Below are positions 3,630 through 36,192 of a DNA stretch of 64,000 bases, piece after piece. The position numbers and the translations under genes were made by a program. Under the pieces are notes generated by a model that was not told the DNA's origin, made no database searches, and saw only the letters and a program-made list of their open reading frames with translations. This stretch comes from Geosiphon pyriformis uo1. Its lineage: Eukaryota; Fungi; Glomeromycota. Position 1 is the first letter of the stretch. Each line of letters starts with the position of its first letter. The stretch spans positions 461,824 through 525,823 of the forward strand of contig JAAOMT010000479.1 in NCBI GenBank assembly GCA_016748015.1, in the 5' to 3' direction.

Positions 3630-4350
3630 GACAGCAATACTAGGGCCAACAACAGCCTCATAATCAAGCAGAAATGGTTTGGATTTATCATACTGAATGG
3701 TAAAAAACTTCTTTCAAAAAACTTTTGACTTTTTTTTTTAGGATTTGTGGAGGAATGAGAGAAAAAAGTTTTATTTATTTGCTTTAAATTACTAATTTTA
3801 AAAAATTTAAATATTGTTTTAAATTATAATATTATACAAAAAATTTTATTATTAAAATTTTTAAAATAATATTTAAATTAATTATTAAATAATTTTTAAT
3901 TTTTTTAATATTATAACTAGTTTATTTTGATGTTTTATATCTTTTTAGTAAACAATCTTAGTTTTTTAATTATTTTTTATATTATTTTTTGTGTTTTTTA
4001 CTAAGTAATTTTTAATGTTATAATTTTAATACTTTTTTTTAATCAATTAGTTTTAACAATAAAATAATAACAGAAAAAATAAAATAAAATAAATATAAGA
4101 AAAATAAAATTAGCAATTTATTAATAACTATAATTAAAACCTATTGTTTTAGTATTTTTTTTATTATATTTAATAAATAAAATCCAATTATAATCTAATA
4201 TAATATATTAAATTAAGTAATTTAAATTAGATGTAATTTATATATTTTTTACATATAATTATTTACTTAAATCAATTAAAACAACATTATATTGTTACTT
4301 GAGTAAAAAAACTAAATAAAAACTGTTAAAAAAATATAATTACTATGTAA

Positions 4351-4460
4351 AAACACAAAATAACATAAAATAATACAAAATAATATAAGTTAACATAAAA
4401 TAATACAAAATAATATAAGTTAACATAAAATAATACAAAATAATATAAAATAATACAAAA
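4351..4460 (+). repeat. Decamer minisatellite (TAACATAAAA/TAATACAAAA/TAATATAAGT) with a 30-bp higher-order unit, part of a dispersed repeat split by LINE-2
   Basis: Direct tandem repeats. The same array resumes at 21161-21230, and an unsplit copy lies at ~55060-55370 on the minus strand. Confidence 0.8.
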
Positions 4461-4581
4461 AAACTTTTTTTTTTCTTACTTTCAAAAATCCTCAAAAAAT
4501 GCATTTTTTGAAAAAGAAGTTTTTTATTTTTTCTTGTTAGTTTATATCAATATTTTTTTGCCTAATAATAACCCATTTTTC

Positions 4582-6465
4582 ATGAATTTGGAGGCTTCTA
4601 CAAGTAGCATCATATCTAAAAAGAAGGCATCCAAGGGTGTTTTTCATGGTTCTGCTAGTGGTTTTTTTTTTCAGAAGAAGAAAGTCATTCTTGGAAATAT
4701 TAAACACTTTGGTGATAAAAAGAATATCTCCTTAAGTAAATTTGGGCTTAGTAATAATGTGTACTCTGATATGGAAAGTCTATTTGGTGATAATAAAAAT
4801 ATTAGCATGTCTAGTGCAAATAGTAAGTCTCTTTTGGGCTCGGCTGCTACCATACTCAAGATAAAATGAGTCAATACTGGTGTTGTTTTTGGCTTTCCAC
4901 TCAGTTTTTCCAATTTTAGTATGGATAATGATAAAGTGGTTTTCTTTTCTTGCTTGTCTATCTCTTTTGACAAAAAGTGGATTGACCCTAAAATCATTAA
5001 AACTCCAGTAAAAGTGTCAATCAAAAAATTGTTTGCTTTAGATATTAATCTCTCAACTGTGGAAGAGAAATCAGTAATGGCAAAAACTCAATTGATTAGA
5101 AAATTTTTTTCTTCAGTCAATGGTTTTGGAGGAACCACTACTTCTTCAAAATTTGAGAGGATCATCAGATTTATTTTCATTTCAGAAAAGAGCATAGAAA
5201 TGGCTATGTTATTGGCCAGAGAAAAAGAGATCAATGTAAACAGTAATCTTAAAAAACAAAGAATGTGGTCAAATCAGGCTGTAGTAATTAAGAAAATTTT
5301 CATAGATACACCTAAAAATATGATTGTTGCCACAGTATCCGAATTTGGGGAAATTAAGTCAATCAAAATTCAATTAATTAGGATGTGGCAAAAGGCTGTA
5401 GTAGAATTTGCTGAATTGAACCAAGCTAATTTGTTGGTCTCAAAGTAATCATTTCTGATTAGAAAAATTCTGTACACATAGCCAAAGCTGTAAAAAATTG
5501 TGAAATTTGGGCATCTAAGGATCAGTTCAGGGTGCTTTTGTTTACTTTGCCAGTAGGAACAACAGCACATAATCTTGGAACTCTTTTGGAAAGGGCTGGT
5601 GAGAAAACCTGCATCATAAACAGATCTATGAAAACTGATAATAGGATTTGCTATGCTGTGGTTGGTTTTAATTCTGATGATAATTTGGAATTTGCTTTTC
5701 ACATAGAGCCTATTTTTGGTGGAATAAAATTATCTTGGGCTAGAATAAATTTGGTTTGCTATAAAAAATATGAGTGTTTTGGGCATTTAGCTCTTAAGTG
5801 TGATACTTTAGACATATTTGTGCTGCTATTATCTAAGAGATCATATAAAAAGATTGCTTCAGAGGAAGTTTGCTTTTGGCTCACTAAGTTGTACAAGAAA
5901 AAAGATGTTCTAATCTCTTGTCCTGCTGTCTTTGGTGGCAAATTTTGAGCCCAAGTGGTCTCGCTAGCTAATTTTTCTGGTGGTGCTTGCTTTAAGTCTG
6001 GTTCTAGTTTCTCTCCTCTTGGTGTCTCAAGTTTGGGTGGTACTCTTTCTCCCACTTCAGCTGATATCTTTGGCTTAAGTAATTGTTTGGCAGTTTTAAA
6101 ATGCTCTTTAGGGTTTTTGTCAGATCAGGTTTCTGTTTTATTGAAGAAGTTGAGCTTTGTAGAGTTGGTGCCCTTGACTACATCCTCTCCTGCTCCTTCT
6201 TTGGTTGCCTCTGTTTCTCTAACTCCTGTTTTGGATTCAAATATGGTTTTGGATAATGTATTGGTATTGTCCATTCTCTTTTTCCTTGCTGGTTTTAATG
6301 CAGTTGCTAATTTTAGCTCTAGTAGTTCTAAAGGTTCTGACCACCAAAATGGGTGGTTTGGAGTCAAAAATAGTGACTTTGGAGACATCAATTAATTTGG
6401 TTTTGGGAAGATTGAATCATCTGTGTTCTGGTTTGGGTTTGTCAGTTCCTTTTTTATTTCAATGA
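4582..6465 (+). pseudogene. LINE-2 ORF1, frameshifted and stop-disrupted
   Basis: Fragments 4534..4869, 4921..5448, 5532..5948, 5955..6395 and 6256..6465 align with LINE-1 and LINE-3 ORF1 (VNGFGGTTTSSKF, WQKAVVEF, TLPVGTTAHNL, decayed CCHC). Confidence 0.85.
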
Positions 6466-8473
6466 TCAGTTTGGTTTGAAAAATTGCTATATGCAATGCT
6501 CAGAGTATAAACAATCCTGCAAAGCAGAAAGATATAGTTCATTGGCACAAAGATATGGGCAATTTGATTTCAATTATTATTGAAACTAAGTTAAAAAGTA
6601 AGATCTGTCTGTAGATTGCTGATAAGTTTGATAATGTCTATGTCTTTACTTTTGGTATGAACTCTGGTTATTTGGGTTCTGGTGTTGTCATTATTATGAA
6701 CATTTCTCTGGCTTATTACGTGTGTAGAATTTTTAAGGTGCCTGGTCAGCTCTTTTCTATTAGGTTACTTTTCAAAAATAAACTTTCTGTTTTGATTTTG
6801 GGACTCTATGCTGGTGCTTCTTTTGTAGTTTGGTTCTCCCAAGCTGGTGATATTAATTCTCTGATTGCAAAGACTATGAATGAATTCTCTTTTGTCATCT
6901 TGGATGGTAATTTCAATGAAGATAGTTCTTACAGATGTGTGAGTTTCAGGAAGTGCCTTGGTTTGGAATTGGTCAATTTTTTGTTGGGAAGTCTAATTGT
7001 GAAAGATCTTACATAGATAAATTCAAAAGACATGGAAAAAACAATTGATTACATGTTCATTTTTTTGAATTTGATTAATGTGGTAATGGGTCACAATGTT
7101 GTGAATGTTAGTGAACACTTTGATACTGATTACAAAGCTGTTTCTGTTTCTGTTAGTTTGGATGAATTACTGAATATGCAACTGAACTCAGTGTACAAAC
7201 AAGTGAATAGAGATTGTTAGAAGTTTGACTTCAAAAATGCTGATGAGTTGAAATAGTATGAGTTTAAAAGCACTACAGTAGTTAATGCTGCTATGTTTTC
7301 AAATGAATTTGATATGTGTAAAAAGTTCTCAGATTTGAATATAATGTGGAACATTGTTTACAAAATTATGATCTTGTTAGCTAATGAAACATTTAAAAGA
7401 AAATGGTATAAGAGTTATACTGGGAAGTTCACCAAGAAATCTTCTAAATTTCACAGATTAGAGCTTTTGGTGTCAAAAATTGTCAGGTGTTTTTATCTGA
7501 GTCTTGAAGGTAAATTTACATTTCTGTTGAATCTTTGGTTTTCTTTGAATAACAATAATGTCTTAAATATCAGAACTCTTCTGGATTCTAGTGCCAACTT
7601 CAATTGTGTGCATTTTGCTTTTTTTAGAGTGAGAAAGTTATATCATGTCAGCAAACTTGCTGAATTTAAGAAAGCTGAAGAAACAAGCATTAGACATGTC
7701 ATTGATAGGAGGATAAAGAGTTTTGAGGTGAACAAAAGCCACATTATCAGAAGTGTTTTGGAATGTTCTTTCCAAAAAGTGGTTCTGAATTATCTGATAA
7801 TTGATAATGAACTGGTTCTAGAACCTGATTGAGTTAAAGCCAAGATGGATATAATCATGGAGGATTGGACCAGAAAACATGTGGTTGTTGCTAATGTATC
7901 TGGAAATTGGTGCCATTAATATCAACTTTTAGAGTATGTTTTTGATGAAGCCTTTTCAGGAGTAATATGCCCAATTGATTTTGATAAGTTGTTCAATGTG
8001 GTATCCAATCTTCTCAATAGTAAAGCTGCTAGGCTTTTTGGTATTTCTAATAAACTTTGAAAACATTGTGATAAGACCAATTTTGGATATGCTCTTAGAG
8101 CTCTTGAATTCTTGTTTAGTTAGTGAATTAGTGCCTAGTTCTTGGAAAGAGACTTGAGTGTCAATAATTTCTAAACTGTATGAATAGAAGGGTGTTCTAA
8201 TGAATACTCATCCTATTGCTTTAATTGAGACTACATGTAAAATTCTCTCTAAGGTTTTCTCTGATAAAATTTTGTTAACATACAGCATGTATGATGTTCT
8301 CTGTGAGAACAATTTTTTGGTTTTAAAGAGTACAATTACACAGTCTTTTATCTTTGCAATTTAATCAATAATCGAAGATGCATTGGAAAAAAACCATAAG
8401 CTATGGTTAATTTTGCAGAATATGCAAAAAATATATGATTTTGTTGAATGGGAGCATCTCAAAAAGAGCCTGA
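6462..8473 (+). pseudogene. LINE-2 ORF2, 5' part (APE plus N-terminal RT)
   Basis: LDGNFNED, KTIDYMF, DTDYKAV and PIALIET motifs. Ends at ...EHLKKSL at the LTR junction. Confidence 0.88.
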
Positions 8474-9453
8474 TGTTACCAGACAAAATTAGAGACATTA
8501 TTTAGCATGAAATTATCTTTATAATTCCCATCATTAATTAACATATATTATCATTTCAAATTATCACTTATTACATTAGCAAAATGTCCAAAATTATTAT
8601 TTAATTAATAACTCAATTTATATAAACACAAATGTAACCTAATTGTGATGATCAATTATGCAATACTCCAAACTATGTAACATTCAAAAAGTTTACCAAA
8701 ATTTGTAGAAATTCGCCGAAATAATTGATAGTTCACCAAAATATCTAATAGTTTGCAGAAATAACTTGTAGTCACCAAAATGTATCTTTAGTTCAGCGAA
8801 ATTGTAGAAAATAGCAAAGTTCAAGTTCATAAAATAGTGTTACGACAAGTTGTATAAAAGAAAAGCATCTCTCTTTGAGAAAATGTATCTTACTTTAGAT
8901 TTATCTCTTAAAACCATTCCTATATACACAAAAAGAAATAAATATCAAATAATTTGAAAAACCAAATTCTTTAATTATTGTACTTGGAAAATTCTCAAAA
9001 ACCCAACTAACATTTTGAAATTGATTAGCTACTAATTTCAGTAAACTGTTAGTGACTCCAGGCCTGGATAGAAAACGTTTCCCTTGACAGAATTCTATTT
9101 CTTTTACATTTTCTTTTATTTTTCTTTTCTTTTCTTAGTATAGTCATTAGGGTAGTCTACAGACGAGATTCCTGTAGAAGAGTTGACTTTCACAGCAAAG
9201 TAACTACACATATTTTGTGAGCTTCCAGATGAGCAATTCCTGGGAAAAAGTTAACGTTTACTACAATGTAACTACATAAAGTAACTGGCATGGAATTGGC
9301 CATTTCACTTATAAGCCCAGCAATTCAAATTATAGGAGATAATTTGAAGATAAATTCAGTTACTGGAAGATCAACCACATCCAAAAAACGTGAATTCACA
9401 ACAAACAGGCATCAACAACATTTAAGAAAAGAGACCAAAAACCTCTGGTAACA
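8474..9453 (+). repeat. Gypsy-1 5' LTR
   Basis: Direct repeat of 17368-18346 with 7-bp terminal inverted repeats and TATAAAAG at 8853-8860. Confidence 0.97.
8691..8860 (+). promoter_or_regulatory. U3 array of six TTC-N3-GAA-type units at 20-bp period, followed by a TATA box
   Basis: Units start at 8691, 8711, 8731, 8751, 8771 and 8791 (17585-17697 in the 3' LTR). TATAAAAG at 8853. Confidence 0.6.
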
Positions 9454-9467: not shown

Positions 9468-12049
9468 ATAGAAACAACACAGCAAAAACAAATTCAAAGT
9501 GGTGACTATACCAGATACAACAACTCTAGAGTATTACCAGTCAATTTACACCCACTGCAAGCAAAGATTCAACATTCCAGACGGAATTGAAGTTGTCAAG
9601 AAATCAATATACCAATACATTAAAAACCACATCAACAATTATCTTTTTGGAAATTACAATATCTCAGAAGTTAGAAGCAATCTTTACAATAATTTAGCAC
9701 ACTATTCACAGTTGGGAACTGAAGATCTTAACAGTGAAACACTTGCCACTTACTTTCAAGAACTTAATTTTAACATTATCAAGTACTGTGAAGAAACATA
9801 TCCAGTGCAGTCTTAATACTCTATTGATTTTGAATCGAAAACAGAAACAAGCAACAAAGGCAAACACAAATTGAAACAATACTCAAAAACCACCCCAAAT
9901 ACTCCAATACTACCAAAAACAACTGCCAAACACTTACAAACACCTGAACAAGGAACCAGTTCAAAACTCTCACTCACTATTACACCTTTTCCAGCTTCAC
10001 TTGCACAAACACAAACACCTAATTCACTCTTGAATCGATTTGCAAGACCAGAAGATTTTACATCACTCAGAAGTCCCACCAGACAGCAAGAACCCCTTCA
10101 AACTAGTTCCAATTTTCTTGATTTTCTAGCTGAAAATCAAAGTGAACACTTTGAGACAGCAGTAAACGAAAAAAATGACTCTGAAATAACTGAAGAAGAA
10201 TCAATAGACAGTGAAAATAAAGAAGATGAAATGACAGCATACATCACAAAAATTCCTGAATTTAATGGAGAAGACATTGAGACCAGTCCCCAAGAATGGC
10301 TCGACCAAGTTACTAAAGCTGGAGATGCAAATGGATGGAATGCTGCCAGAATGTTAAAAACAATTCCCTACTTTCTCAAAGGAACAGCAGGAGAATGGTT
10401 TGAAAACTTGGCCACTCCATTCAATGATTGGGATGCTTTCAAAGCAGCTTTTCTTGAACAGTTCACTGACAATAATACCTCCATCACTCTTCGAAATTGG
10501 TTTTGCAATATCAAACAAGAATCCTCTGAATCTGTTATGACTTATATTGGAAAATTCAACAAACTTCTCAGACAAATTCGCCAATAATTATTATTCTGAT
10601 GCCCAAATCTTGGATCAATTTATCACTGGTTTAAAAGATAAACTGATTAAAAAGGTTTGCCCACATGTCCCAGAAGATTTAAACTCTGCCATTTAGCATG
10701 CAAAGAGATATGAAATAGCCATAAAAGAAGCCAATCATACAAAACTCGTGAACTTAGCCATTGGAAAGACCAGCTCAGCGGCTGAAGAGAAAATTGACCA
10801 ACTCACAAAGAAAGTCAAAAACTATTTCACCAACCAACAACAACAGCAACCCCAAAGATATTAACCACCCCAAAGACAAAATTAAAATAACTTTGTACCA
10901 CTTTCTAATAACCAGCCTCAGAATTGCCATTATTGTGGAATCTCTGGCCACTGAAAAAAAGATTACAGAAAGCTACAACAAGACCAACAAAATAAGAGTA
11001 ATCAACATTACCCTCCACCACAGCAATCTTATTATCAACCACCACCAGCTTACTATCCACCAAGACCCCAATACCAAAGTAACTATTATCAGCCCACCCC
11101 ACAGCCAATCCAACAACACTACCAACAACCACCCACACAACATTATCAAGTACCTGCTCAAAGACTGATTACACAAAATCAATTCACACCACAAAACTGA
11201 TACCAAGTAAACAATAATAGAATCAGTTCAAACAACCAATTGGTTCCCCGAAATTCCACTCAACCAAAACCCAACCACTATTACACTCAACCCAGTTATT
11301 TAACAATGCCAGAAGAACAAAATTTTCATCATACTGTACCCTTGGAAGATAGAGCTACAGCACAACAACAAAATTTTTCTTATAACCACATCACTATTCC
11401 ACCAGCCAGAATTGCTGAAAACACTAATCTTTCTGATATATTCCCTTTTAAATTTGAAGCAAATGAATTATCATTCTTGCTTAGCAGTGTAGCGGCTAAT
11501 GATCAAAAAGCCATTACTGCAATATATATAGAAGTTGAAACAGAAGGAAAGCCAATTCACTTAATTCTAGATAGTGGATCCACTGGAAGCATTATTACCT
11601 ACCAGTTGATGCAACAGTTAAAGAGAAATGTTGACTGACCAGCTCAGACAGTAATCATTACTGCTAATGGCATGAAAAAGACTCCAGTAGGAAAAATTGA
11701 CAATTTTCCATTCACTCTTGATGGAATTACCATTCCAGTCAAAGTTCTTGTAATAGATGCTCTCCAGTATCAAGCCCTTGTTGGAAACTATTGGCTCCAA
11801 AAAGCCAATGCAAAATTAGACTGGGAAACCCAAGAACTACAAATCTCTTACCAAGAACAACATGTCCGAATATCTGCCACTTGTGGTACATTCAACAAAT
11901 GCTCCGAAAAAGCCCCAGCTTTTGAATTCAAACCAGAAGAAGAAAAACCAATAATTGAAACATTTATGGCTCTTGGATCAACGTCCAATTGGGCCAATAA
12001 AACTGAACAAAAACATTTTACCCCACACTCTGAACCCAAAACTCCTGGA

Positions 12050-12730
12050 TGAAATATCCCTTACTCAAAGCCTAAACCAAAGAAACAACATTCCTATATT
12101 TCTCTTAAATGTAAGGACTACAACAAGAAACTCTCATCAATGGGAGCCTGCATTTCACTTGAAGAAGAATATGAAAATCATACTTGTTACTATTGCAAGG
12201 CTTGTCACAAAGAACAATAGGGCTATTTAATAAAAAGAAGTGGAAAATGGGACAACACCCCTTGTTTGACTTGTGGAGATATGCTACCAGAAGAATGCAA
12301 TTGGATTGATGTAGCAATGAGAGGAGGAGTCTGTAATCAAATCTGCCAAAATGCTTTATCAATTTCAGAAAAAGTCAAAAGATGAACACCCTTTAATGCA
12401 GCATACAACAGTGCTCTCAACAAACTGTACTATTATCCTTATGATGCCGAAATAATTTTCAATCTAGCAATGGCTTTAATCAATAAAGCCATTCAAGAAA
12501 ATGTTTGTCAAATGAAAGAATCAGAATACATTGCATACACCTTTGAAATCGCTGGATACAACTACGAAGATGAAGTATAAGTATATCACCAAATTGCCAG
12601 TCACACTTATCCGACCAAAGAAGCTCAAGCTCAATGGCTAGAGCAAATGAACATTAAATTGTGTGAAGAATACATAATGCTCTGCAATGAGCAATGGTGC
12701 CCTAAATGCTATGCTCTTAGTATTCCCCTG
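12050..12730 (+). other. Cys-rich putative Zn-binding domain between protease and dUTPase (decayed)
   Basis: In-frame translation: CKDYNKK..ACIS..CYYCKAC..KWDNTPCLTCG..EC..GVCNQIC......LCEEYIMLCNEQWCPKC. Homologs are present in Gypsy-2 and Gypsy-3. Confidence 0.7.
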
Positions 12731-12849
12731 CCCAGTGAAAATGATGAAAACAAAATTGAATTTGAAGAACCTGAAGCAACAGAAGAAATTGAAACAACAC
12801 CTATCTATCTTATCAAAAGTCAGTCTGTCTTACAACTCAAATACTTTAA

Positions 12850-13266
12850 CAACAATGGACAAGGAATAAAACCCGAAAAAGCACATGAAATTGATGCTGG
12901 ATATAATCTAAGATATCCAGACAAGGATACTTTTGTTCTCAAATCCAAATCTCTCACAAAAATCAACCTCAAAATTGCACTCAAAATCTCGCCAGGAGCA
13001 ATAGTTTAAATCGCCTTTCAGTCCTCTCTGGCAAGCAAAGGAATCAATGTCAGAGGAGGAATAATCAATGCTGGATATACTGGAGACATTACAGTGATGC
13101 TTCAAAATGAAATTAACAAACCATTCAAGATTGACCATGCTGAAAAAATTGCCCAAGCTATTTACCTATCCCTAATCAACATTTTGAGTTTGCAACTAGT
13201 CAATCAAAGAGAACAATTAAGAAAAAGTGATAGAAGAACCCAAGGTTTTGGTTCAACTGGACGATT
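12850..13266 (+). pseudogene. dUTPase domain within pol
   Basis: All five trimeric dUTPase motifs in order: DAGYNL, SSLA, GIINAGYTG, KIAQAI, RRTQGFGSTG. The D>N changes are explicable by G>A. Confidence 0.93.
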
Positions 13267-15154
13267 CACAATTCCAGTTAATATAGCTCTTAACACACAG
13301 AACAAATCCCACCAGATTCTCAGACTTCCACAACCAATTACCATCTCACTCTTTGGAAAACATCCAGAAATCTACATCTGTCCAAAGCCAACAACCACAT
13401 AACAAATTTTTGAGTTCAATGAACAAGTTTGCTTGGAACATAATATTTCGATCCCAAACATTTATATTTCAGAAGGAACAAAAAAAGTCCGAGTTACTTT
13501 TTACAATCCCAACAATTACCCCATAGTTCTATTAAATAACTTAGAAATTGGAGTCATTCACAGTAACATCTTTTAACAAGAACTACTCCAGACAGTTTCC
13601 AATTTTTCAGAAATTATTGGACATTCACTACCAAAAATCAACCCAAACCCTAGTTCTGAAAACTACTATGTTGTCATGGAAAAACTATCTCGAATCAACA
13701 TGGGACAACTTGAACCACAACAATAGAGCCAGCTCAAAGAACTAATTGTAGAATTTGCCGATATCTTTGCTGAAAACAACAATGACTTAGGAAGAACCAA
13801 TTTGGTCCAACACCAAATTTATACAGGAGATGCCAAACCAAGAAGACAAAAAGCATATCAAGTTGCTCCAGAAAGCCACCAATTCATCCAAGAAGAAGTA
13901 CAACAAATGCTTAACAATGGGCTCATCCAACCCTTCATGAGTCCTTGGGCTTTACTTATAGTGCTAGTTAAAAAAAAAAATGGAAAGATACGATTTTGTG
14001 TTGACTATTGACAACTTAACAGTATTACAATTGGAGATGCCTACCCCTTTCTCTGAATTGATGACATGTTAGATGCCCTTGAAAAATCCAAATACTTTTC
14101 AACACTAGATTTAGAAAGTGGTTACTGGCAAGTTGCTATGGATCCCAAAGATTGCCTCAAAACAGCATTCACCACCCAAGGTAGAAATTATGAGTTCAAT
14201 GTAATGCCTTTCAGATTATGCAATGCACCAGCAACATTTCAGAGATTAATGAATGTTGTGTACCAAAGACTCCTTTGGAAGTCAGTAGTCGTTTATCTTG
14301 ATGATACTGATGTTTATTCTCCATCGTTCAAATTACATTTAAAACATCTGCGAGAAGTTTTTCAATGATTACAAAAAGCAGGACTAAAACTCAACATCGA
14401 AAAATGCTACTTTGGAAAAACAAGCTTGGCCTTCCTTGGTCATATTGTTAGTAAAGATGGAATCAAACCAGACCTTAAAAAAATCAGCGCTGTTAAAAAC
14501 TTCAAAACTTCTCAAAACACTACAGAACTAAGAGGATTCATAGGGTTAGCCTCTTACTATTGGAAGTTTATCAAGAGATTCTCAAAAATCACAAAACCTC
14601 TCAACCAGCTTACCACCAAAAACGTTAAATACAAATGGACTGCTGAATGCCAAAATGCATTTGAAATCCTCAAAGAAAAACTAATGACAGCTCCAATTCT
14701 CACCTATCCAGATTTCAGCAACCGATTCCAATTAGCAACAGATGCCTCTTATACTGCCTTTGGTGCTATTCTATCACAATTGGATGACAATAAAAATGAG
14801 CAGGTAATTGCTTATGCTAGCAGAACATTAAAACCAGCTGAAAAAAATTATTCTGCCACTGAATTGAAAACAGCAGCTGTAATTTGGGCCCTACATTATT
14901 TCAACCTTTATTTTCGGCCAAAAGAATTTGATATTATCACTGATAATATTGGACTCAAATAGCTTCAGAACAAAAATACTTAGCTGAATGCAAAACAAAC
15001 TCAATGGACAGGATTTCTAGCAAACTATTAATACATAGTACATCACAAACCAGGAAAACTCTACACCAATGTTGACTGTCTCTCCAGAATAAGACAAGAT
15101 TAGAAAACACAAAAACCAATACTTAACTTAACCAACCAAAACAGCCAACAAACA

Positions 15155-16540
15155 ATGAATTCGGAAAACTACAACAATCTTAAACAATATTTGGAAACAT
15201 TAACAATCCCAACAGATTGGTCGCCAGATGAAAAACATCAACTACAACAACAAGCCAAACAATATTTTTTACACAACAACATTATTTATCATCAAAATTT
15301 CAAAAACCCAGACAAACCACTCAGATTAATACAAGAACAAGAAAAAGAGACTATATTATACAACATGCACTCAGATCTTTCATCAGCACACTTTGGAAAA
15401 AACAGTACCACCCAAAGAACACTAGAATACTACTTTTGGCCTTGAATGAGAAAAGACATTTACGAATATGTCAAATCTTGTGATAGTTGTCAAAGAAAAG
15501 GAGGAACACGCCCTACTGAACCATTAAATCCAATTAAAGTTGGACAGCCTTTTGACCGAGTTGGTATCAATTTAGTCAGACCATTATCTATCACTATTCA
15601 AGGAAACTATTATATTGCAGTAGCTGTAGACTATCTTACTAAATGGCCTAAAGCCAGAGCCATTCAATGAGTAAATGTGAAATTAGTAGCAAATTTCATC
15701 TATGAAAACATCATTTGTAGACATGGATGTTCAATTGAACTTTTATCTGATTAGGGAACACACTTTGTGAACAACCTGATACAAGAAATTTGTGAATGAT
15801 TCAATGTCAAAAAATCTCTGTCTTCACCCTATCATCCACAAACAAATGGGCTTGTAGAATATTTTAACAGAATATTGTGCGAGTCATTAGCCAAAGTCTC
15901 AACCAATTTTGAGCAAGAGTGGGATATCTTTATTCCATCAGTGTTACTAGTATACAGAACACTAAAACAAGATACCACAAAACACACACCATTTGATTTA
16001 ACTTATGAAAGGACAGTAATATTACCAATTAGTTTCATAGTAGAAACATACCCAGCACAACCAATCAATGAAAACAATTTTCAGGAAATGCTTCAACGAA
16101 GAGCCTACATGCTTCTCAGCATATTGGAAAGAAAATGACAAATAGCGGCCACCCATATTAAACACTCCCAAACTCAACAAAAAAAACAGCATGACAACAA
16201 ATTGCCTCCAGTTACCAATGATTTTAAAGTTGGAAACAAAGTTCTCCTACACAAAACTAAAGCTGAAAAACAATGGAGTGGAAAATTTGAAAATAAATGG
16301 GATGAACCATTCTTTATCCATGAAATACTAGGCAATGAATCATACAAGTTAAGACTTAATAACAAAATCCTAGCAAAAGTTGCACATGGAGATTGTTTAA
16401 AACACTATCATTTCAGAAACAATTCTGAACCATTAATTCCATAAATTGGTACACATTCACCTTTAGTCAATCCCGAAGATATTCCCCGAAACATAGAACC
16501 AATAGTTGTTATTGAACAACCTTCCAACTTGAACACTTAA
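15155..16540 (+). pseudogene. Gypsy-1 integrase (HHCC, DDE, GPY/F-like module, EPIVVIE tail), apparently its own ORF
   Basis: MHSDLSSAHFG..YFWP..CDSCQR; PFDRVGINL; VDYLTKWP; SD.GTHF; YHPQTNGLVE; GKFENKWDEPF. ATG at 15155 follows TAG at 15101; natural-looking stop at 16538-16540. No chromodomain seen. Confidence 0.9.
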
Positions 16541-16679: not shown

Positions 16680-17399
16680 ATGACTATCCCTTAAAATATT
16701 CAACAAATATCTTAAAAATTAATGCTAGCTCTAAAGACAATACCCGAATTATCTATTACTGTTACTGGAAACCATATTAATTATACCCAAACAGAAGTAG
16801 TTACAAATTTAGTCCCAAATTCACGAAAATATTACCCACATAAGAAGAACACAAGAAGTTATTCTGGAATTCACCTACCAGAACTTTTGAAGCTTGCTTT
16901 AAGAGAAAACTTATTGCTCATCCCTATTAGTATTCTACCAAATGCTACTATTCAACAAAAACTTCAACTGTGCCTTAATAAAGAAAACAGCAAATACCCC
17001 CCAATATATAGATATTTCTACATTAGAAAAACACTTTACGAACAAAAACTGGAGCTTACAGCAGCAAACCTCACAAAAAAAGCTATCCAAAAACAACTCT
17101 ACAATAAATTTAAGACAACAGCTGGACCTACAAACAGTCATTATAAATTAAGAGCAGCTCTTAGACTTTACGACTTATTCCACATCTGTGAAAACGTCCT
17201 ACAAAACCCAATTTTACAACCTTTGAAGATTCAATACATTGGAAAGCTCACAAAACTGAAATTTCAACAATTTTCAGACCAAATTTCTTCAATAATTTTG
17301 GATTATTATCTGGAAATTACAAACAGTACTTGGACTTCGATGGAGCTCAGTCTTAAGGAGGAAGTTATGTTACCAGACAAAATTAGAGACATTATTTAG
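16680..17399 (+). CDS. Gypsy-1 ORF3, unknown basic helical protein (not Env-like), overlapping the PPT and 3' LTR
   Basis: 225 open codons at 16722..17399. An upstream in-frame ATG at 16680 is separated by two probable CAA>TAA stops. No signal peptide or TM segment. Decayed homologs occupy the same position in Gypsy-2 and Gypsy-3. Confidence 0.65.
17355..17364 (+). promoter_or_regulatory. Polypurine tract of Gypsy-1
   Basis: AAGGAGGAAG ending 3 nt before the 3' LTR, preceded by GGAGCTCA. A similar context is seen in Gypsy-2. Confidence 0.85.
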
Positions 17400-18346
17400 C
17401 ATAAAATTATCTTTATAATTCCCATCATTAATTAACATATATTATCGTTTCAAATTATTACTTATTATATTAGCAAAATATCTGAAATTATTATTTAATT
17501 AATAACCCAATTTGTATAAACACAAATGTAACCTAATTGCAATGATTAATCATGCAATACCCCGAACTATGTAACATTCAAAAAGTTTGCCGAAATTTGT
17601 AGAAATTCGCCGAAATAATTGATAGTTCACTGAAATATCTAATAGTTCGTAGAAATAACTTGTAGTTCGCCAAAATGTATCCTTAGTTCAGCGAAATTGT
17701 AGAAAATAGCAAAGTTCAAGTTCATAGAATAGTGTTACAACAAGTTGTATAAAAGAAAAGCTTCTCTCTTCGAGAAAATATATCTTACTTCAGATTTAAC
17801 AATTAGAATTATTCTTTATACACAAAAGACAAAATAAATATCAAATAAATTCGAAAAACCAAATTTTTAATTACTTTCCTTGAAATTAACCAATTCCTAC
17901 TAACAGTTTGAAATTGACTAGCTACCAATTTTAGTAAACTGTTAGTGACTCCAGGCCTGGATAGAAAACATTTCCCTTGACAGAATTCTATTTCTTTTAC
18001 ATTTTCTTTTATTTTTCTTTTATTTTCTTAGTACAGTCATTAGGGTAGTCTACAGACAAGATTCCTGTAGAAGAGTTGACTTTCACAGCAAAGTAACTAC
18101 ACATATTTTGTGAGCTTCCAGATGAGCAATTCCTGGGAAAGAGTTGACGTTTACTACAATGTAACTACATAAAGTAACTGGCATAGAATTGGCCATTCCA
18201 CTTATAAGCCCAGCAGTTCAAATTATAGAAAATAATTTGAAGATAAATTCAGTTACTGGAGGTTCAACCACATCCAGAAAACGTGAATTCACAACAAACA
18301 GGCATCAACAACATTTAAGAAAAGAGACCAAAAACCTTCGGTAACA
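17368..18346 (+). repeat. Gypsy-1 3' LTR
   Basis: Direct repeat of 8474-9453. Confidence 0.97.
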
Positions 18347-18350
18347 CTGG

Positions 18351-21027
18351 TTAGGATAAAAATGTGCAGTAAGTTTATTTGATTTTTTGGCAGTATCCAT
18401 GGTGGTTGTATTAACAAGATTATGACTAACTTTGGTTTGACAAACAGATATCTGGTACATGATGGTTTGGATCAAGGGGAGGTGTTTTCACCTTTTTTTT
18501 AGTGTATATTTTATGATCTTTTGTTGTGTGAAGTCAAGAAACAGGAGAGCTTATGTAAATATAAATTGATTTCTCACTTTGTTTCCAAGACAGGTTGTAC
18601 TAAACTTCATGCTAAACTAACTTTTTTTCTCATTGCTGGTGCATTTGTAGATAATACTATTTGAATTGGTTGTAATCTAAGAGCTATTCAATATATCCTA
18701 GATATTGCCAGTGATTTTTTCTGTATTAATAACATCTCCATAAATAATGACAAAACAATAGCTATTCTTATCAATTGCAATGTTAAGTGCTCTTTTTTGT
18801 TGATTAGTGGGTTACCTATTTTTATTGCCAAAAAAGGCAAATCTTATTGCTATCTCAGTATTTATCTGTCTACTAATGGACTTTTAAAGTCTAGCTTGGC
18901 TAAGGCATATTCTAACATTTGGTTTTTTGCCAATCTTGTTTTGAAAAAAACTATCTCAGACAAGCAGTTTTTGTATTTAGTATTAGTTATGTTTTATCTT
19001 ATTATTGGTTATAAGACACAATTTAGCTTTATTTCTATTGGTGTATACAATAAATGGGATGTTTTAATTTATAGAAATTTGAAGTCAAAGGCTTGTCTAC
19101 CTTGTGATTTTTCTGGTAATGTGGTTTATTACCCTTTCTTTTACAATCTAAAAACTTTTGAACAAGTTCAGTCTGAAAGAAAATTGGCATTTTTTGTGGT
19201 TTTTGCAAATTCTGATGGGATTTTAGAACACTTGTTCTCCCACAAGTCTCATGACTTGCAAGTTTTAAGTTGGCATTCATTCCATCCTTTGTGTTTTTCA
19301 GTTCATACAAAAGTCAGTCCTTCTAATAACTTTTTGGCAGGTGTGGTACATGTTTTTTTTGAGTGTAATTTGTCTTTGAGTGGGTCTTTAAATAGCTCTT
19401 TCTATCTTCAGAGTGGTGTGTTCATGTCAACTGCTCTTGGTGAGTCTAAGTTTTTCAAATTCTTCTTTTCTCTTTAGTAATACAATGTTGTTTTTGTAGA
19501 CCAGCTTCACGATTGTCATAATGCAGTCTTTAGTTGGAATACTTTTAAGTAATAGAAGAGGCTTGATCTTCATGGTCCTGTTTTTGACTGGTTTAAGTTA
19601 TCTGTTACTTTTCTCAATGATGCAAATCTTTTCTTTAATAGCCCTTTAGTTTTGGGTGGTTTTGAATCTTCAAATGTTCTTATGTCTTGCAAGTTTAAAT
19701 CTATTTTTAGTCAACTATCTCATGTCAGTTTTAATACTCTGTCAGTCTATACAGATGATTCTCTGAAAAACATGAACATGGTTAACAGGAAAACTGGCAC
19801 AACAGTCTTTTTTAAAGACATTAACTCAAGTTTGGGTATTGGTGTTTCTGGTTTAATGTTATCTACTTTGGCTGAATTATAGGCTATAGTACTGGCTTTT
19901 GAGTGTGTTCTCTCTCTTAGTTTGGTTCAGTTGTTTACAGACAGTCAAGCTGCTTTGGATGCATACAAATTGGAATTGGGTTTGATATATTCAGATTTTC
20001 ATAACCAGTATTGGGTGAAATGCCAGCATATTGTGAGCATTATTCATAATAAAAATTTAAGGGTTAGTTGGCATAAGGTTAAGAATTACTCAAGTGTATT
20101 GGAAAATGAATGTGCAGACATACTTGCTGATACTGCTTTTCTTTCTAAATAGTGCCTCTCACTCCAATTGAAGGAACATTATATACTGGCTAGAAGTGAG
20201 GTTGTTTTTGGTAGCTCAAGATACTTTGTTTGTGATATTTTTCAGTTTATGTATCATGCTTATTGGGAAATTGGTTTTGGTTCTAGGTTTCTGGTGGATA
20301 GTTTGCTTTTGGACATTGATTAGTTTAGTTTATCTTTGGTGTGGCATCTGGACTTGCATATGGCTGCTGGTTCTACCAGTAGACTCTCTACTGGTGCTTG
20401 TACTTATTTTATGAAAACTCTGTACTATTGGCTTCCAGTTGCTGTACAGAAGCATTTTTACAACAAATACAATCTTGGTGTAATATGTTTATATTGTGGG
20501 GATGTTGAGATGTCAGATCACATTTTTTCTTGTATGACTGATAAATCTGTTCATAGCCAGTTGTTAGATGCTTATGCAGTTTCTTGAAGGGCAATTTCTG
20601 GTTTTTTTCATTCATTTTCTTGTGTGTTTCAGCTGATGTTATCTTGTGCTTTTAATGTTAATATGTGTATGGCCATTTGTAAGAGTTTTGTCTTTGCAGG
20701 TTGGTTCCAGAAAGGGGTGTCAATTTTTGGTGACTCCAAAGTGGCACATCTAAAAGTTGTTGAATTTGTGTGAACTTTTTGTCTTACTTTTAGGGATGAA
20801 ATTTGGTTAGTTTGGGCTAAGCATCATGTCTTTATGAAAAAAAATGGGCTGATTCCACTAGGCAGTTTGGCCTCTATCTCAATTTTTGGTTTGTCTTTGG
20901 GGTTGTCTGCTGGTGTTGTTAGGTTGTTTGGAATTGCTGAAGCATTTGGTGTTTGTTTTGGGTTTTATAAGTCTTGTTTGTTTTTTCAGGGGTTGAAGAC
21001 CTTGTTTTGGTTTATATAAGTGTGTAG
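18351..21027 (+). pseudogene. LINE-2 ORF2, 3' part (RT core, RNase H, C-terminal CCHC)
   Basis: GLDQGEVFSP, AGAFVDNTI, VYTDDS...STLAEL, FTDSQAAL, WHKVK, CLYCGDVEMSDHIFSC. Confidence 0.9.
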
Positions 21028-21150
21028 TGTTGTTTTAATCAGTTTGAGTGACTGGTTACATATAGAAAAAACATGATTTACACTTAGTTTAGATTACTTA
21101 TGTTAATGTATTGTGCTAGGCAGTGTTTAGACCTCACTTGTAAAACGTAA
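21028..21150 (+). promoter_or_regulatory. Conserved structured LINE 3' UTR (copy in LINE-2)
   Basis: About 120 nt alignable almost without gaps to 22078-22198(-) and 38515-38636(-). Stems and a loop-to-3'-end pairing are preserved in all three. Confidence 0.7.
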
Positions 21151-22198
21151 TAATAAAAAAATAATATAAAATAATATAAAGTAATATACAATAACATAAA
21201 ACAATACAAAATAATTAATAATAATATAAGATAACTAATTATAATATAAAAATAAAGCAATAACAAGAATAGTAAATAATAGTTAATAATAACAAGTAAT
21301 TAAAAACAATTTTATAAAACTAGAAAATATGTGTAAAAATAATTAGTTTTAATAAATAGAAAAAAATTAAAATAAACAAGAATTAAATTTTTTCTAATAT
21401 CTTATTTTTAATTTAAAAACTTTTTTTATTTTATTTTTTTCTATATCTCTTATCAATTAAATAAAATATTATTATTGTATCTACAATTATATAATTTTAA
21501 TAATTTAATTGTTAAAATCTATTTAATTGTTTTTTTTATTTTTATTTTAGACTAAATAAAATTAGCATAAATGTTTTTAAAATTTTAATAATTTGAATCA
21601 ATTGTTTTTAATTATAATAATAATTAATGAGATACTAATTTTTTTTTATTTTTTATTGTAAAACAATAATATTAAAAATCAACTGTCTTAAAATTAGACT
21701 TTATAATAGTCTGGTAAAAAAAAGCTTTTTCTAAGTATTAAATATTAATTTTATCTTATTAACTTACTAAAAAAGTAAAAAAAACAATATTAAATTCTAG
21801 TAATTATAATTAAGACAAAAAAACACAACTATTATAATACAATTACTAAAACAATATTTCTGTGTTTTATAACAAAAAAACTTTCAGAAATTAATAAACT
21901 AATTTATTACAAAAATCTATCTATTAGAAAACTATTTTGTTTCTATTATTTAATCATAAATACCAAATATTATGATTATATTTTACTAAGTTTATTTGTA
22001 ATAATATTAAAGTAAAAAAAGCTAAAAATAAATTTATTTCATTAATTTTTTCAATAATATTATTTAAATTTTTTTTTATTGCTTTACGAATGAGGTCTAA
22101 ACACTACCTAGTACTATACATCAAAGAAATGATCTAAACTAGGTGTGAATCATGCACTTTTTACACGTGACCAGCCACTTGAACTGATCAAAACAACA

Positions 22199-25100
22199 CT
22201 ACACAGCTATATAAACTAAAACTGAGTTACCTACACTTAAGAAAAACAAACAAGATTTGTGAAAGCCAAAACAAATACTAAAAGCATCAGCAATGCCAAG
22301 CAATTTGACCATCCTAGTCAACAACTCAGAGGCCAAACCAAAAACTGAGACAAGAACTGAACCATCAAGAAAAATCAACCCATTTTTTTTCATATAAACA
22401 CAATGTTTAACATGAACTGACCAGACACTACTCCTAAAATCAAGACTAAAAGAGTACACAAATTTGACAATTTCCAAACCAGCAACCTTGGAATCATAAA
22501 AGATGGTGACCATCTCATGAAACCAATCATTAAAAATGAAACTCTTATAAAAAACCATGGCCAAAAAGGAGTCAGAAACACATGAAGACAACATTTGTAA
22601 TATGCCCGAAGAAGAATGAGAGAAACCAGAGATCACCTTTCAGGAGTCCACATAGGATTCCAACAACTGACATCGGACAGATTCATTAATCTTGTAAGAG
22701 AACACATGATCTGATGCCTCCACATTGTCACAATATAAGCACAACACACTCAAATATAGTCTATTATAAAGGCACTTTAAAACAGCAACTAGCAGCCAGT
22801 AGTGCAAAGTCTTCATGAAATAAGAGTGAGCATTAGCTGAAGGTCTGCTGGTAAAACCAGTGGCCATGTGCAAGTCAAGGTGCCAAACCAAAGATAAATG
22901 GAGCCAGTCAACCTCAAAAAGCAAGCTGCCTGCCAAAAACTTGAAACCAGAACCAACCTCCCAGCATATACAACAAACTGAACAATAAATATCACGTACA
23001 AAATGTCTGGAATTGCCAGAAACCACACTACTATTAGCCACTAGGAAGTGTTCACCCAAGTGATAAGAAAGATACCAACCAGAGAGAGAAATATCATCAG
23101 CAATTGTGTCAGCATGCTCATTTCTTGAAATGCCAGAGTGGCCCTTAACCTTATGCCAGCTGACCTTTAAATTTTTACAGTGAATAACATTGACAATATG
23201 ATAATGTTCAACCCAATACTGATTATAAAAGTTGGAACATGCCAGACTTAATTCAGACTTGTAGGCATCCAGAGCAGATTGACTATCAGAAAACAGTTTA
23301 ACAGAGCTCAGTGGGGGAACACACTCCAGAGCCAGTGCAATAGCCTGCAACTCCGCCAAAGTAGATGACATCAAATCCAACACACCGATGCCCAAACCCA
23401 AATTAATGTCCTCAAAAAATGCAGCAGCGCCAGTTCTACAACCAACTGTACCCAGATTACTAAAAGACCCATCCATATACACTGACAAACTGTCGACACC
23501 AACTTGCAAGAAATAATCACAGACAGAAACAAAATTACTAGATTCAAGAATATTCAAAGAACCAACCCCATCCAAAACTGAGAAATGAGTGAAAAGAAAA
23601 TCTCCACCATCAAGAAATGCAACAGAAAACTTGAACCACTCAGAAACAGGGCCATGAGGGTCTAATTTTTTCTAATGCTTGAAGGTGTGCCAATCAAAGA
23701 CAGAACCATGACAATCGTAAAGTTGATCCACAAAGACAACACCATATCATTGGAGAGAAGGAAAAAACCTGAGAAACTGTGACTCACCCAGAACAGCAGA
23801 CATAAAGACCCCACCACAAAACTAAAAAGAATTGGCCAAAGAGCCATCCCGGAACAAATCGCAGTCAAGAAGAATGCAAACCATGCCTGCCAGAAAGTTA
23901 TTAGAAGAACTGACACAAATACGCACAGGAAAACTCAATAAATAAACAGAACACCAGCACAGAACCTGCAAGTCATGGAACCTGTAAGAGAACAAACATC
24001 CCAGAATACCACCCGAGTTTGCAAAATTAACAAGAGAGACTATCTTGCTCTTAGACTGAACTTGAAAGAAAGATTTCAAACCATAAAAAAAAGAGTGATG
24101 AACTGTATCACTAGAAAAATTAAGAGGTAGGCCAGATTTAAATTTCAATCCTCTATGAATCAAGGTATCCTATTTGTTGCATGTACCAATAGGAACAAAA
24201 CTGAACTGAGTCCTATAACTAACTATAAGATAAAGAACTACTGACACTAAATATAAGAACTGTTTATTCAAGACAGCTTTTTTCAGGACCAGATTGATAA
24301 AAAAATGAACATCTGAATTCGCCTTTACCAAACTAGGCTTTGAGAAATTTTTAGTCAAGAAAAAAATACCCAAATATCAATGAAATTCACCCTTTTTAGC
24401 AATGGAGATTGGCAAGCCACTAATAGAAAGAGAAGGAGTGCTGACTCTGTAATTGATAGGAATGGCCACAGTTTTGTCGTTATTGATAGAAATATTATTC
24501 ATCCGAAAAAATTCACTTGTAACATCTAGAATGTATTGAATAGCTGTCTAACTACTACCAACCCAAATTGTATTATCAACGAAAACACCAGCAGTAAAAA
24601 AGGAAGAGAGCCCAGCCTAGGACTTAGCATGACTATTCCTTGAAATAAAATAAGAACTTAATCTATAACCACACATGCTTTCCAGACTTCACATAGTAGA
24701 AGATCATAAAATATACACCACAGAAGAGAAAAAAAAACCTCCCCTTGGTCCAAACCATCATGCACACAATAACCATTTGTCAGTCCAAAGTCCGTCATCA
24801 CCCTGTTGATATAATTTTTATGAATACTACCAAAAAACTGAATAAACTTGCCACACATCTTGATCCTGACCAAACTTTTCTCGAGATGTTCCTAGCTGAC
24901 TGAATTGTATGCTTTTCACATATCCTGCAAAACCAACCAGAGTTCTTGATTCTTTTCCAATGCATCCTCAATCATTGATTCAACTGCAAAAATAGGAGAC
25001 TGAGTTGTTGTACTTTTTAAAACTAAAAAATTGTCCTTACAAAGAATGTTGAAAGAGCTGCATGCCAAAGAAATCCTATTAGAAAGAATCTTGGAAAGAA

Positions 25101-26880
25101 TTTTACAAGCTGTCTTGATTAAAGCAATAGGACAGGTATTCATGAGAACACCTTCCCATTTATATGGTTTAGGAATTATTGAGACCCAAGCTTTCAACCA
25201 AGATCCAGGCACTAATTTGGAAGACAAACAAAAGTTTAAAAGCACTAAAAGCATATTCAGAATTGATCTGTTATAATGTTTTCAAAGCTCGTTTGTAATA
25301 CCTGAGAAATCAGCAGCTTTGTCATCAGACAGATTGGAAATCACATTAAGCAGCTTATTAAGCTCAACCAAATGCATTACACCAGAAAAAACCTTATCAA
25401 AAATGTAATCCAATGGCTGATATTAATGAGACCAAACATCAGTGACATCAGCAATCACATTATGCTTCCTGGTCCAACCTTCTATAATAACATCTACCTT
25501 AGATTTAACTGAATTGGGCTCCAAAATAAGCTTATCCTCTACAACCAGATGGTCTAGAACCACTTTGTAGAAAGAATGCTCCAAAACACTCCTGATAGTA
25601 TAATCTTTATTCATCTCGAAGCTTTCCATCCTCTTATTTATAGCAGTCCTAATGTTTGTTTCTTTAGTTGCCAAAGACTCAGCAAGCTTGGATGCATGAT
25701 AAAACTTTCTCATGCCAAAAAGAGCAGAATAAACATAACTAGAGATTGCACCAAAGTTAATAAGATCCTGAACAACTGAGGCTTTGACACTGTTCAAAGA
25801 GTTCCAGCACTTCATAAGAAAGATGAAACTACCAATATTGCCCTTACAAGAGGTCTTGACAATCTTCAAAACCAAAAGCTCCAATCTATAAAACTTTGAA
25901 GAGACTTTGGTAAAAACACTATCAAAATTCTTGAACCATTTTTTTTTAAATATCTTATTTGCAAAAAGAACCACTATTTTGCATAAAACATCTTACATGG
26001 CATCCAGATCTGAGAACTTGACAGTGGCAGCGAATTTGTCAGAGAACATCTCAGCATTAGCCAATGTGGCATTTCTAAAATTTTCTTATCTACTGTTATT
26101 AGCACCCTTGAAATCAAACTTCCAGTGATCCTTATTAGCCTGCTTATAAAGAAAGTTTAACCACATATCCAAAAGTCCACCCAAACTCATTGACACAAAA
26201 ACAGCTTGATGATTAGTATCAAAAAATTTACCAACATCACACACTACGCAATCCACCATGGCATTGACTAAGTTTGTGGAAACAAATAAGAAATCAATAG
26301 TCTTAGTCATGCCCTGAGAGTTAGCCCATGTGAGCATTTTAACAAAAGAACTTTTACCCAAGAAATTAATCAAACCAAAATCTAAACACTTTTTGAAACT
26401 AGCACACCTTTGAGAGCTGTCCTCATTGAAGTCACCACCCAAAACCACAAATGAAGATTCATTAACTGCTTTTGCTATCACAGAATTAACTTTATTAGCC
26501 TAAAAGAAGTAAACAGCCAGAAATGCTTCAGCATAGAGCCCTAAAATTGACACAGAAAGTTTATGTTTGAACAACAGCTTGATTAAAAAGAGCTGACCAG
26601 GCACCTCAAAAACTTTACAAACATGACAAGCTAGAGAATTGTTTATAATGATTGTAATGCCAGCACCAAAAAACTCCTTATTCAACCCAGATGAAAAAAC
26701 TTTAATCCTATTGAACTTATCCTTAATCCAAAACCTACAACTAGATCTCAGCTTTGTCTCAGTAATTATCGAAACCAAATTTCCAGAATCTTTATGCCAA
26801 TGGATAATGTTCTCTTGCTTGGTGGGGACATTGATACCACGAACATTACACGTTATAAATTTTCAAACAAAATCACTCAT
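22199..26880 (-). pseudogene. LINE-3 ORF2 (APE, RT, RNase H, CCHC)
   Basis: LGGDFNED, IPKPYKW..PIALI, LQDM, GLDQGE, GVFVDNT; RNase H VYMDGS..STLAELQAI..FSDSQ..KVKGHSG..NEHAD; CLYCDNVEASDH. Confidence 0.93.
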
Positions 26881-28825: not shown

Positions 28826-28969
28826 GACAAAAGGGGTTGTGTTAAAAGAAATGACTTGAATGTACTAAGGGAAAAGGAATAAAGTAAAGCAATTTCTTCT
28901 ATAAATTCTTTCACTCTTGTAGTGGCCAGAGGATCAATGAGAAAAAGATAGTAGATTATTTAAATTTCT

Positions 28970-31600: not shown

Positions 31601-31677
31601 ATAATAAATTAATAAATGATCCAAAAACACTTGATGACAGAGAAGGAACGCGATCAAATTTCCAAGTTTTCCACTTC

Positions 31678-33201: not shown

Positions 33202-33916
33202 GATTAATTGACGAGATGAAATACCAAAGACAATCATAACTTATACCTTTAATTACTCTGTTTAATTTTCTGGCATTTTGCTAAAACTGAATGCCCCGAA
33301 TTTAAATTTTAATGGCCGCTGGGAGTTTAGTTGAAACCTCGGAAATTTCGGTTTCCTGAGATCCTAAATCCCTAATATCCGTGATGTACCAATAAATGTG
33401 TATGCTCTGTCATGGTGTTTGGTCAATCTTTTAATTAAAGGGAAAATTTTTTGATTCCCTTTCGGAAACTTTTGTTTGTTTGTTAAGCTTCATTATTAAA
33501 TTTTCATGGAGATCTCCACAATAAACTAAATATTGATTAATCAAATCAAATACTTAGATTCCCCCAATTTTTTTGATTCTAAAAATTCCGAATTGTTACA
33601 GCTTTTTTTCAATTTTAAATAAACTTTTGCGTTCAAAATACATGATCTTCGTGATTATTCATTAATACCGTATATAGTTGGACTGTAACTAAAGCTCAAA
33701 AATTAAATTAAATTAAATTAAGATGACAGTAAAATTGTCCTACTGTAAGTTTCTAGATATATCCCCATCACTTACCACCTCGATGCTTCGTGACTAAAGA
33801 ATATTCAACCATGTCCTCGTTTCATACAAATTGCCTATCACTATGTATAAAGTCCAGAAAAGTCTCTTACACTACTTTATCGATTAAGAAATTAAAAGGC
33901 CCAAGTTCTATAATCA

Positions 33917-35936: not shown

Positions 35937-36192
35937 ATTTTCAGTTTTTAATAAAATAGTGAAACTTATTTTGACAAATGACGATGAAACCTTTGAATGG
36001 GAAAAGGGAAACTACAAAGAGAAGTTTTAAAAGTCCCGAGCCATAAATCGAAATTGAAGCCGCAAATTTGAGGATTCCAAATAACTGCTGTTTGTCAACC
36101 TAAGAGACAAAGATGTTTATACAATGAAAAAATGAGCGTCATAACAGATCTTCATTTGTTTAATAAATAGAGGAACTGAAACTCTTGTTATC

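Follow-up and report, generated by a model that had tools for sequence, protein, structure and literature searches.

The window analysed here is a stretch of 64,000 nt from contig JAAOMT010000479.1 of the glomeromycotan fungus Geosiphon pyriformis. On its forward strand it carries Gypsy-1, a retrotransposon bounded by long terminal repeats (LTRs). The 5′ LTR (8474–9453) and the 3′ LTR (17368–18346) form a direct repeat with TG...CA ends, and a purine tract precedes the 3′ copy. The two are 91–96% identical over their three longest blocks and 77% identical over a 69-nt block. The 4-bp flanks, CTGA (8470–8473) and CTGG (18347–18350), differ by one base. With two LTRs, TG...CA ends and a short target duplication with a one-base mismatch, Gypsy-1 is a complete LTR element. 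Open reading frame (ORF) 1 (9472–15103) encodes gag, protease, dUTPase, reverse transcriptase (RT) and RNase H (Pfam Retrotrans_gag, Asp_protease_2, dUTPase, RVT_1 and RT_RNaseH) and ends four codons past the RNase H motif with a TAG stop (15101–15103). An A/C-rich, AUG-free spacer of 51 nt (15104–15154) separates it from ORF2 (15155–16540), which begins with its own ATG and encodes an integrase with a zinc finger, a core and an SH3-like end, as assigned by Pfam and homologs. ORF3 (16680–17399), to which no function is assigned, runs into the 3′ LTR. By Pfam, the order gag, protease, RT, RNase H, integrase is that of Ty3/Gypsy elements (Metaviridae). LTRs, this order and a dUTPase between protease and RT are shared with dUTPase-bearing fungal families such as PosPlaTy3-5 (PMC2864245; papers given by PMC number are cited from passages of their text). 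Both large frames are decayed: ORF1 has stops and one frameshift, at about 10590–10600 inside gag, which is likely decay, and decay is also the likely origin of the TAA stop at 16442 in the integrase. Between protease and dUTPase, ORF1 also contains a Cys-rich stretch of about 250 residues (12050–12800) without a Pfam match.

At the junction, Gypsy-1 reads L-S-R-I-R-Q-D, followed by the TAG, the spacer and ACA-ATG, translation from this ATG giving MNSENYNNLKQYL. The spacer consists of 59% A, 29% C and 2% G and is predicted to be unfolded, and the integrase ATG has an A at −3. A second element, Gypsy-2, lies on the reverse strand. Its heavily decayed RT-RNase H frame (51166–52206) reads L-S-stop-M-K-Q-I and ends with TAA (51168–51166). 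A spacer of 30 nt (51136–51165) follows, then the integrase (49894–51135), in which ATA at 51135, in the register of the conserved ATG, precedes NTQKYQQL; the ATA is likely a decayed ATG. The two elements carry the junction stop at the same codon, four residues past the LSR position. These positions agree with an earlier reading made from the window alone (the sequence-only reading), as does its remark that both spacers, being multiples of 3, stay in frame. In a third, very decayed copy on the reverse strand (about 57100–59300) the junction is unreadable.

Both legible copies are dead relics, and their stops might simply be glutamine codons that decayed independently, with the ATG incidental. 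Gypsy-1 has 11 stops in 796 codons and Gypsy-2 14 in 561; both are full of C-to-T stops, and CpG stands at 0.24 and 0.04 of expectation, respectively, a strong loss. From these stop counts, the chance that a common Gln codon became a stop in both is about 3%. Because both copies are so rich in decay stops, the window alone is weak, merely suggestive evidence for a split. Other copies of the Gypsy-1 family were read in 3541 contigs of a sequencing run (X1), perhaps of the window's own sample, that match positions 14700–15500. At the decay stops at 14981, 15029 and 15443 these contigs read C in 85,434 of 100,837 (85%), 39,551 of 66,865 (59%) and 96,663 of 110,909 (87%) of depth. Position 15101 is outside the 40 best-supported of 146 listed differences, so that a minor variant there is possible, and 18 contigs that diverge after 15102 carry TAA and a different spacer. 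Over a 111-nt stretch covered by 117 contigs, neither the stop nor the ATG was listed as differing; as this comparison was insensitive near its ends, where it missed a difference at 15091 that the larger one shows, it is not counted as support. Since other copies restore a C at the decay stops yet leave the junction stop in place, and relatives with stop-free frames keep the split, the junction stop is not decay, and independent loss of glutamine codons is highly improbable.

The relatives were examined as proteins and as DNA. Among proteins of 235–749 amino acids (aa), the best 120 of 1393 matches to the integrase are 392–453 aa long. Of these 120, 100 begin with a methionine at exactly the window register, three begin at most five residues from it and 17 further in. 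Because this size range is blind to fusions, longer proteins were searched as well. Among the best 120 of 506 matches, only four reach at least 40% identity, all of them named Glomeromycota gene models, and the rest are at most 38% identical. P0121 and P0122 join RNase H to integrase, and in both the motif that ends RNase H and the first helix of the integrase are missing at the join, as expected if the intron were false. P0123 is part of a long-tailed branch described below, and P0124 is without RT.

An RT-RNase H query against proteins of 824–2624 aa, a range that admits fusions, gave a complementary picture. From the best 120 matches we kept 58 with one match of at least 400 residues; the 62 dropped, largely tandem gene models from animals and algae, had several or shorter matches. 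All 14 homologs with at least 51% identity end within 30 residues past RNase H and lack an integrase. The integrase is likewise absent from 15 of 17 at 49–51%, from 13 of 24 at 47–49% and from two of three below 47%. In 12 of these homologs a tail of 166–404 residues follows RNase H, still with no integrase. Counting DNA loci, this long-tailed branch of the split clade has 166–587 extra residues between RNase H and the stop that precedes the free integrase (L007:2-4441 and L016:3361-6705; proteins P0313, P0314, P0321–P0323, P0337, P0338, P0346, P0348, P0351, P0352 and P0354), and two tails that were scanned have no Pfam match. In P0324, P0325 and P0335, the Pol frame carries a NUDIX domain (PF00293, precomputed) where others have the dUTPase.

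Of 84 DNA loci found without gene calling, 46 have an RNase H end upstream of the integrase, 11 of them close to the window's elements and 35 distant. All 11 close loci show a stop followed by an ATG in register, and in 10 of them the integrase frame is free of stops; in L007 an open gag-to-RNase H frame of 1434 aa is followed by the separate integrase. The spacers of the close loci measure 365, 89, 62, 163, 30, 63, 727, 110, 74, −8 and 278 nt. Among the distant loci, 29 of 35 read through in frame and six are broken, and none has a methionine in register. Across 23 loci with a readable integrase N-terminus, 21 have the ATG in register and the other two read ATA, like Gypsy-2. The sequence-only reading had held that the stop is ancestral and that the integrase is a separate ORF with its own start, and both claims are borne out by these loci and by the other copies. 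Its further inference, that the integrase is expressed and packaged independently of Pol, would follow from this gene layout. It had also allowed that both stops could be mutated Gln codons, and had named as refuting signs a sense codon there in young copies, spacers always multiples of 3 and no conserved ATG. None of these signs is seen: a sense codon occupies the stop position in none of the 11 close loci, two of their 11 spacers are in frame, and the ATG is conserved as just described. The close relatives that carry a name belong to Rhizophagus irregularis, R. clarus, Cetraspora, Entrophospora and Paraglomus, which points to a mycorrhizal-type fungus as the host; R. irregularis has stop-free members (P0008 cluster). 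One member of the cluster bears the label of a bacterial metagenome bin, which we take as misbinning, and viral contigs yielded four loci, none of them in the split clade.

A single long Pol could still be made in spite of the stop, either by readthrough or by removal of the stop with an intron, as Ogre elements splice out the region between two ORFs (PMC6317226). The in-frame spacers of the window, of which that of Gypsy-1 is open, and some public gene models that join RNase H to integrase are what this explanation has in its favour. Over 12 junctions, however, only three are in frame, one of these with a second stop, and the stop codon and the bases after it vary. An intron of the Ogre type would have no conserved donor: four of the 12 junctions contain no GT between the last conserved Asp of RNase H and the stop, and a consensus donor occurs in none of the 10 short-tailed ones. 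Moreover, the motif at the end of RNase H is missing from the joined gene models, and a fixed methionine with a start context is unexpected in a fusion. Judged from these sequences, readthrough and an Ogre-type intron appear largely refuted for the lineage, and we consider a long Pol improbable.

Throughout the lineage, a stop closes the frame that ends in RNase H, a separate ATG in a fixed register opens the integrase, and the spacer between them is free in length and frame. We put the probability that the integrase is a separate reading frame in Gypsy-1 and its lineage at about 95%. Because a stop and a separate ATG take the place of an integrase at the end of Pol, Gypsy-1 is a variant and not a canonical member of Ty3/Gypsy. 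LTR retrotransposons and retroviruses normally bring the integrase into the particle as part of Gag-Pol. In the usual layout the integrase is translated as the end of Pol and freed by the protease (PMC5911963). A survey of 25 fungi, none of them from the Mucoromycota or Glomeromycota, found mostly one Gag-Pol ORF or two ORFs (PMC2864245). Compared with the Ty3/Gypsy elements surveyed there, the Gypsy-1 lineage has its break after RNase H, ahead of the integrase, and adds a conserved ORF3 behind the latter. We found no description of a separate integrase ORF in Gypsy elements in the literature searched, which extended neither to Repbase nor to most subscription journals; the structure table of PMC2864245 may bear on novelty. 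The split is absent from the passages of PMC6839031, PMC6431247 and PMC5911963, and of two papers on Rhizophagus transposons (PMC11075540 and PMC8647823) one does not contain the word ‘integrase’ and the other contains it once. Within this literature, the split layout is a previously undescribed variant of Ty3/Gypsy organisation.

Trees were computed with quick IQ-TREE runs on hand-chosen rows and carry SH-aLRT support only. The RT tree has 90 rows, P0123 being left out for too short a match, and the integrase tree has 93; L032 entered the latter as an off-frame translated slice and was left out of the topology test. In the RT tree, 51 of the 52 split rows, three gene models and the fused protein P0126 form one clade (SH-aLRT 99), and in the integrase tree 51 free integrases and the same P0126 do so (SH-aLRT 98). 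The RT of the split clade nests among fused Gypsy-type proteins, in a tree without copia, Bel-Pao or retroviral rows. Most simply, an ancestral pol was split once, long ago. Two observations weigh against this reading. P0126 is fused and falls inside the split clade in both trees, and its fused form is real, since a second record (P0465) shares it; it might be a re-fusion, but its placement is not firm, as a tree that holds 50 free rows together without P0126 is not rejected (p-AU 0.694). The split locus L035 (L035:1-2666, with a 278-nt spacer) sits on a long branch outside the clade in both trees; there the split may have arisen a second time. Capture of the integrase from a Ginger transposon was considered as a source and is unsupported: the presumed Ginger-like rows, three that are labelled solely by a precomputed Ulp1-type domain, lie outside the free-integrase clade.

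How the second frame would be translated was approached through its start. A purine at −3 occurs at 18 of 21 integrase ATGs and at 75 of 120 internal ATGs (p 0.046), and all 100 of 100 integrases have D, E or N as their second residue, versus 129 of 580 positions after an internal methionine. From these two features the start looks used. AUGs are scarce before it: 11 spacers of at most 200 nt contain one where 8.7 are expected, and none of 1500 dinucleotide shuffles is as low. The eight spacers between integrase and ORF3 likewise contain one where 4.6 are expected (p 0.025). The shortage of AUG together with the start context points to scanning, be it by restarting ribosomes or by ribosomes on the leader of a distinct mRNA.

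We infer that both frames would be translated from one genomic RNA by termination-reinitiation, the mechanism that has been put forward for ORF2 of LINE-1, where the spacer measures 63 nt (PMC5972666). Ribosomes would finish the gag-protease-RT-RNase H frame, scan the short, AUG-poor spacer and restart at the integrase ATG; ORF3 could be reached likewise. Less integrase would then be made than Gag and RT, which share one frame. Restart is favoured because, within a single clade, the frames lie anywhere from overlapping (−8 nt) to tens of bases apart, and no acceptor is conserved. On the sequence features at hand we give this mechanism an even chance.

Several points weigh against restart or weaken the signals on which it is built. 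The D, E or N at the second residue could instead cap a helix and tell nothing of a free N-terminus. Nor is AUG the only triplet in short supply: the spacers also have fewer GTA (3 versus 10.8 expected) and CAT (6 versus 13.5), so that the signal is less than fully specific. In three of the 11 close loci (L001, L016 and L035), whose spacers were excluded from the AUG count, 278–727 nt with 3–12 AUGs lie between the frames, a distance that plain scanning would not cross. By frame alone, readthrough could operate in the window itself. Four of 15 junctions, the window's not among them, have the core of the calicivirus termination upstream ribosome-binding site, TURBS (UGGGA, complementary to 18S rRNA helix 26), either within 90 nt upstream of the stop or inside the spacer; the start/stop overlap that goes with it is seen in one of 12 junctions, and the window spacers are 51 and 30 nt long.

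Finally, an AUG-poor leader with a good start context fits a separate short mRNA equally well. The integrase might be translated from such an mRNA, made from an internal promoter or by a splice that joins the LTR leader to an acceptor site upstream of the ATG, in the manner of foamy-virus Pol or retroviral env, with the spacer as its 5′ leader. This would account for spacers free in length and frame, including the AUG-rich ones of 278–727 nt, and in foamy viruses Pol is expressed independently of Gag and reaches the particle by a different route (PMC3196705). However, the spacers of L012 and L021 contain no AG at all and four of 14 lack one in their last 40 nt, and there is therefore no conserved splice acceptor in the spacer; in L022 the overlap of 8 nt leaves a leader no room outside coding sequence. 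We regard a separate mRNA as a serious possibility, if a somewhat unlikely one.

In a branch of the relatives the sequence before the integrase ATG suggests yet another route. Nine related loci carry an RNA motif of about 40 nt with the pattern GTGMAAGCNNAAGTGTNNNCANNGTGANNNRCAGC, whose 3′ end lies at most about 16 nt before the ATG (L004:581-628, L006:181-228, L007:4459-4506, L011:486-533, L018:171-218, L024:4-51, L028:488-535, L032:15-62 and, weakly, L003:20-65). Its predicted fold is a three-way junction. In the seven sequences used to build the model, which are also those on which it was scored, 97.4% of cells pair and five of 11 pairs change on both sides; none of 500 shuffles reached the covariation score, and slid controls were 18–44% paired. 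A search of 82 sources with the model added L032 (52 bits) and, weakly, L003 (19.6 bits). It gave no match in the window, 13 loci gave no Rfam match at E ≤1, and no exact match to the motif was found in prokaryotic genome contigs or viral contigs. A covarying structure at this position could recruit ribosomes to the integrase ATG, by internal entry or by tethering them after termination, and the A/C-rich spacer of the window would be an unstructured version of it. However, the window lacks the motif, as do 10 of the 11 loci that have an upstream RNase H, its structure was scored on the sequences from which it was drawn, and it could equally be a packaging signal or an integrase-binding signal. 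Recruitment by RNA structure is a doubtful explanation.

The frame after the integrase is a further feature of the lineage. In Gypsy-1, ORF3 is open from the ATG at 16722, its original start being probably at 16680. All eight loci examined (L004, L005, L006, L007, L008, L011, L012 and L016) have an ORF of 119–230 codons after the integrase, at distances from a 4-base overlap to 181 nt, and the family has 438 representatives at E ≤0.001. ORF3 of the window matches this family weakly (probability 20%, E 0.001) and has no Pfam family; those of the eight relatives gave only two weak, single-member Pfam matches, and no solved structure was matched by sequence. A predicted model from a relative is all-helical (pLDDT 95.5). 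Foldseek found nothing for it at E ≤0.001 in the PDB and viral libraries, and the highest Z in a wide structural search was 5.0; neither a new fold nor a function can be concluded from this. Atlas look-alikes were not convincing. In some public gene models ORF3 is fused to the integrase (P0121, P0430 and P0431), and two relatives have a fourth open frame after ORF3 (L005:3226-3781 and L007:6804-7436), of which that of L005 has no Pfam match. A bolder and unlikely picture would join these features: a polycistronic genome of gag-pol, integrase, ORF3 and sometimes ORF4, expressed by repeated restart in an old, widespread lineage of fungal LTR retrotransposons. The three-way-junction RNA of one branch would place the ribosome on the integrase start, and ORF3 would be a restart helper or a packaging adaptor for the free integrase.

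Parts of this organisation are found in other systems. LINE-1 ORF2 and SART1 resemble Gypsy-1 in that a downstream retroelement enzyme has its own AUG after a stop (PMC5972666). In contrast to Gypsy-1, for which the mechanism is only deduced, they are non-LTR elements and have no particle to enter. Caulimoviruses are reverse-transcribing, like the split lineage, with successive long ORFs and spacers from overlaps to hundreds of bases (PMC5972666). In cauliflower mosaic virus, restart across up to 700 nt occurs with a viral helper protein, TAV (PMC5972666), whereas no TAV-like protein was identified in the split lineage, where ORF3 has no clear fold match. Ogre/Tat elements of the plant Gypsy group share with Gypsy-1 a polyprotein region interrupted by a non-coding stretch (PMC6317226). 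With respect to packaging, foamy-virus Pol offers a likeness, an enzyme made apart from Gag and packaged without covalent linkage (PMC3196705); by analogy, the free integrase would enter the particle by binding RNA, Gag or RT. In foamy virus the whole of Pol is separate, whereas in the split lineage RT stays fused to Gag and the integrase alone is free.

Ginger1 transposases are also free-standing Gypsy-like integrases, starting just before the YPYY-type helix (PMC2836005). This N-terminal motif is common to them and to some Gypsy integrases, including a Rhizopus family (PMC2836005). Ginger1 encodes a single transposase between terminal inverted repeats and has no RT, whereas Gypsy-1 is an LTR element with RT. 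The 4-bp target duplication of Ginger1 is reported as CCGG or CCGT (PMC2836005), and the flanks of Gypsy-1 resemble this target if CpG decay is allowed for; CTGA and CTGG are compatible with a decayed CCGG-type target.

Elsewhere in the window, both strands carry several LINE-like (non-LTR) elements in a decayed state, with frames for endonuclease and RNase H, at 850–7830, 18600–28900 and 39700–46300. An island of intron-split host genes (31560–37600) contains a Man1/Src1-like frame (32144–32644), an inositol-phosphatase-like frame (33917–34432) and methyltransferase-like frames (36193–37590), the last by our own reading and without a Pfam match.

For the annotation of mycorrhizal fungi the split calls for a correction, because public gene models splice across the junction or label the free integrase a transposase. 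Ginger1-like DNA transposons have been proposed to arise from such a free, ATG-started integrase module (PMC2836005), although the integrase tree links no such pair. A successful lineage that makes its integrase separately must translate, dose and package this enzyme in another way. It thus raises two testable questions: by what means eukaryotic ribosomes in fungi resume initiation downstream of a very long ORF, and by what route an unfused enzyme gets into a retro-particle.

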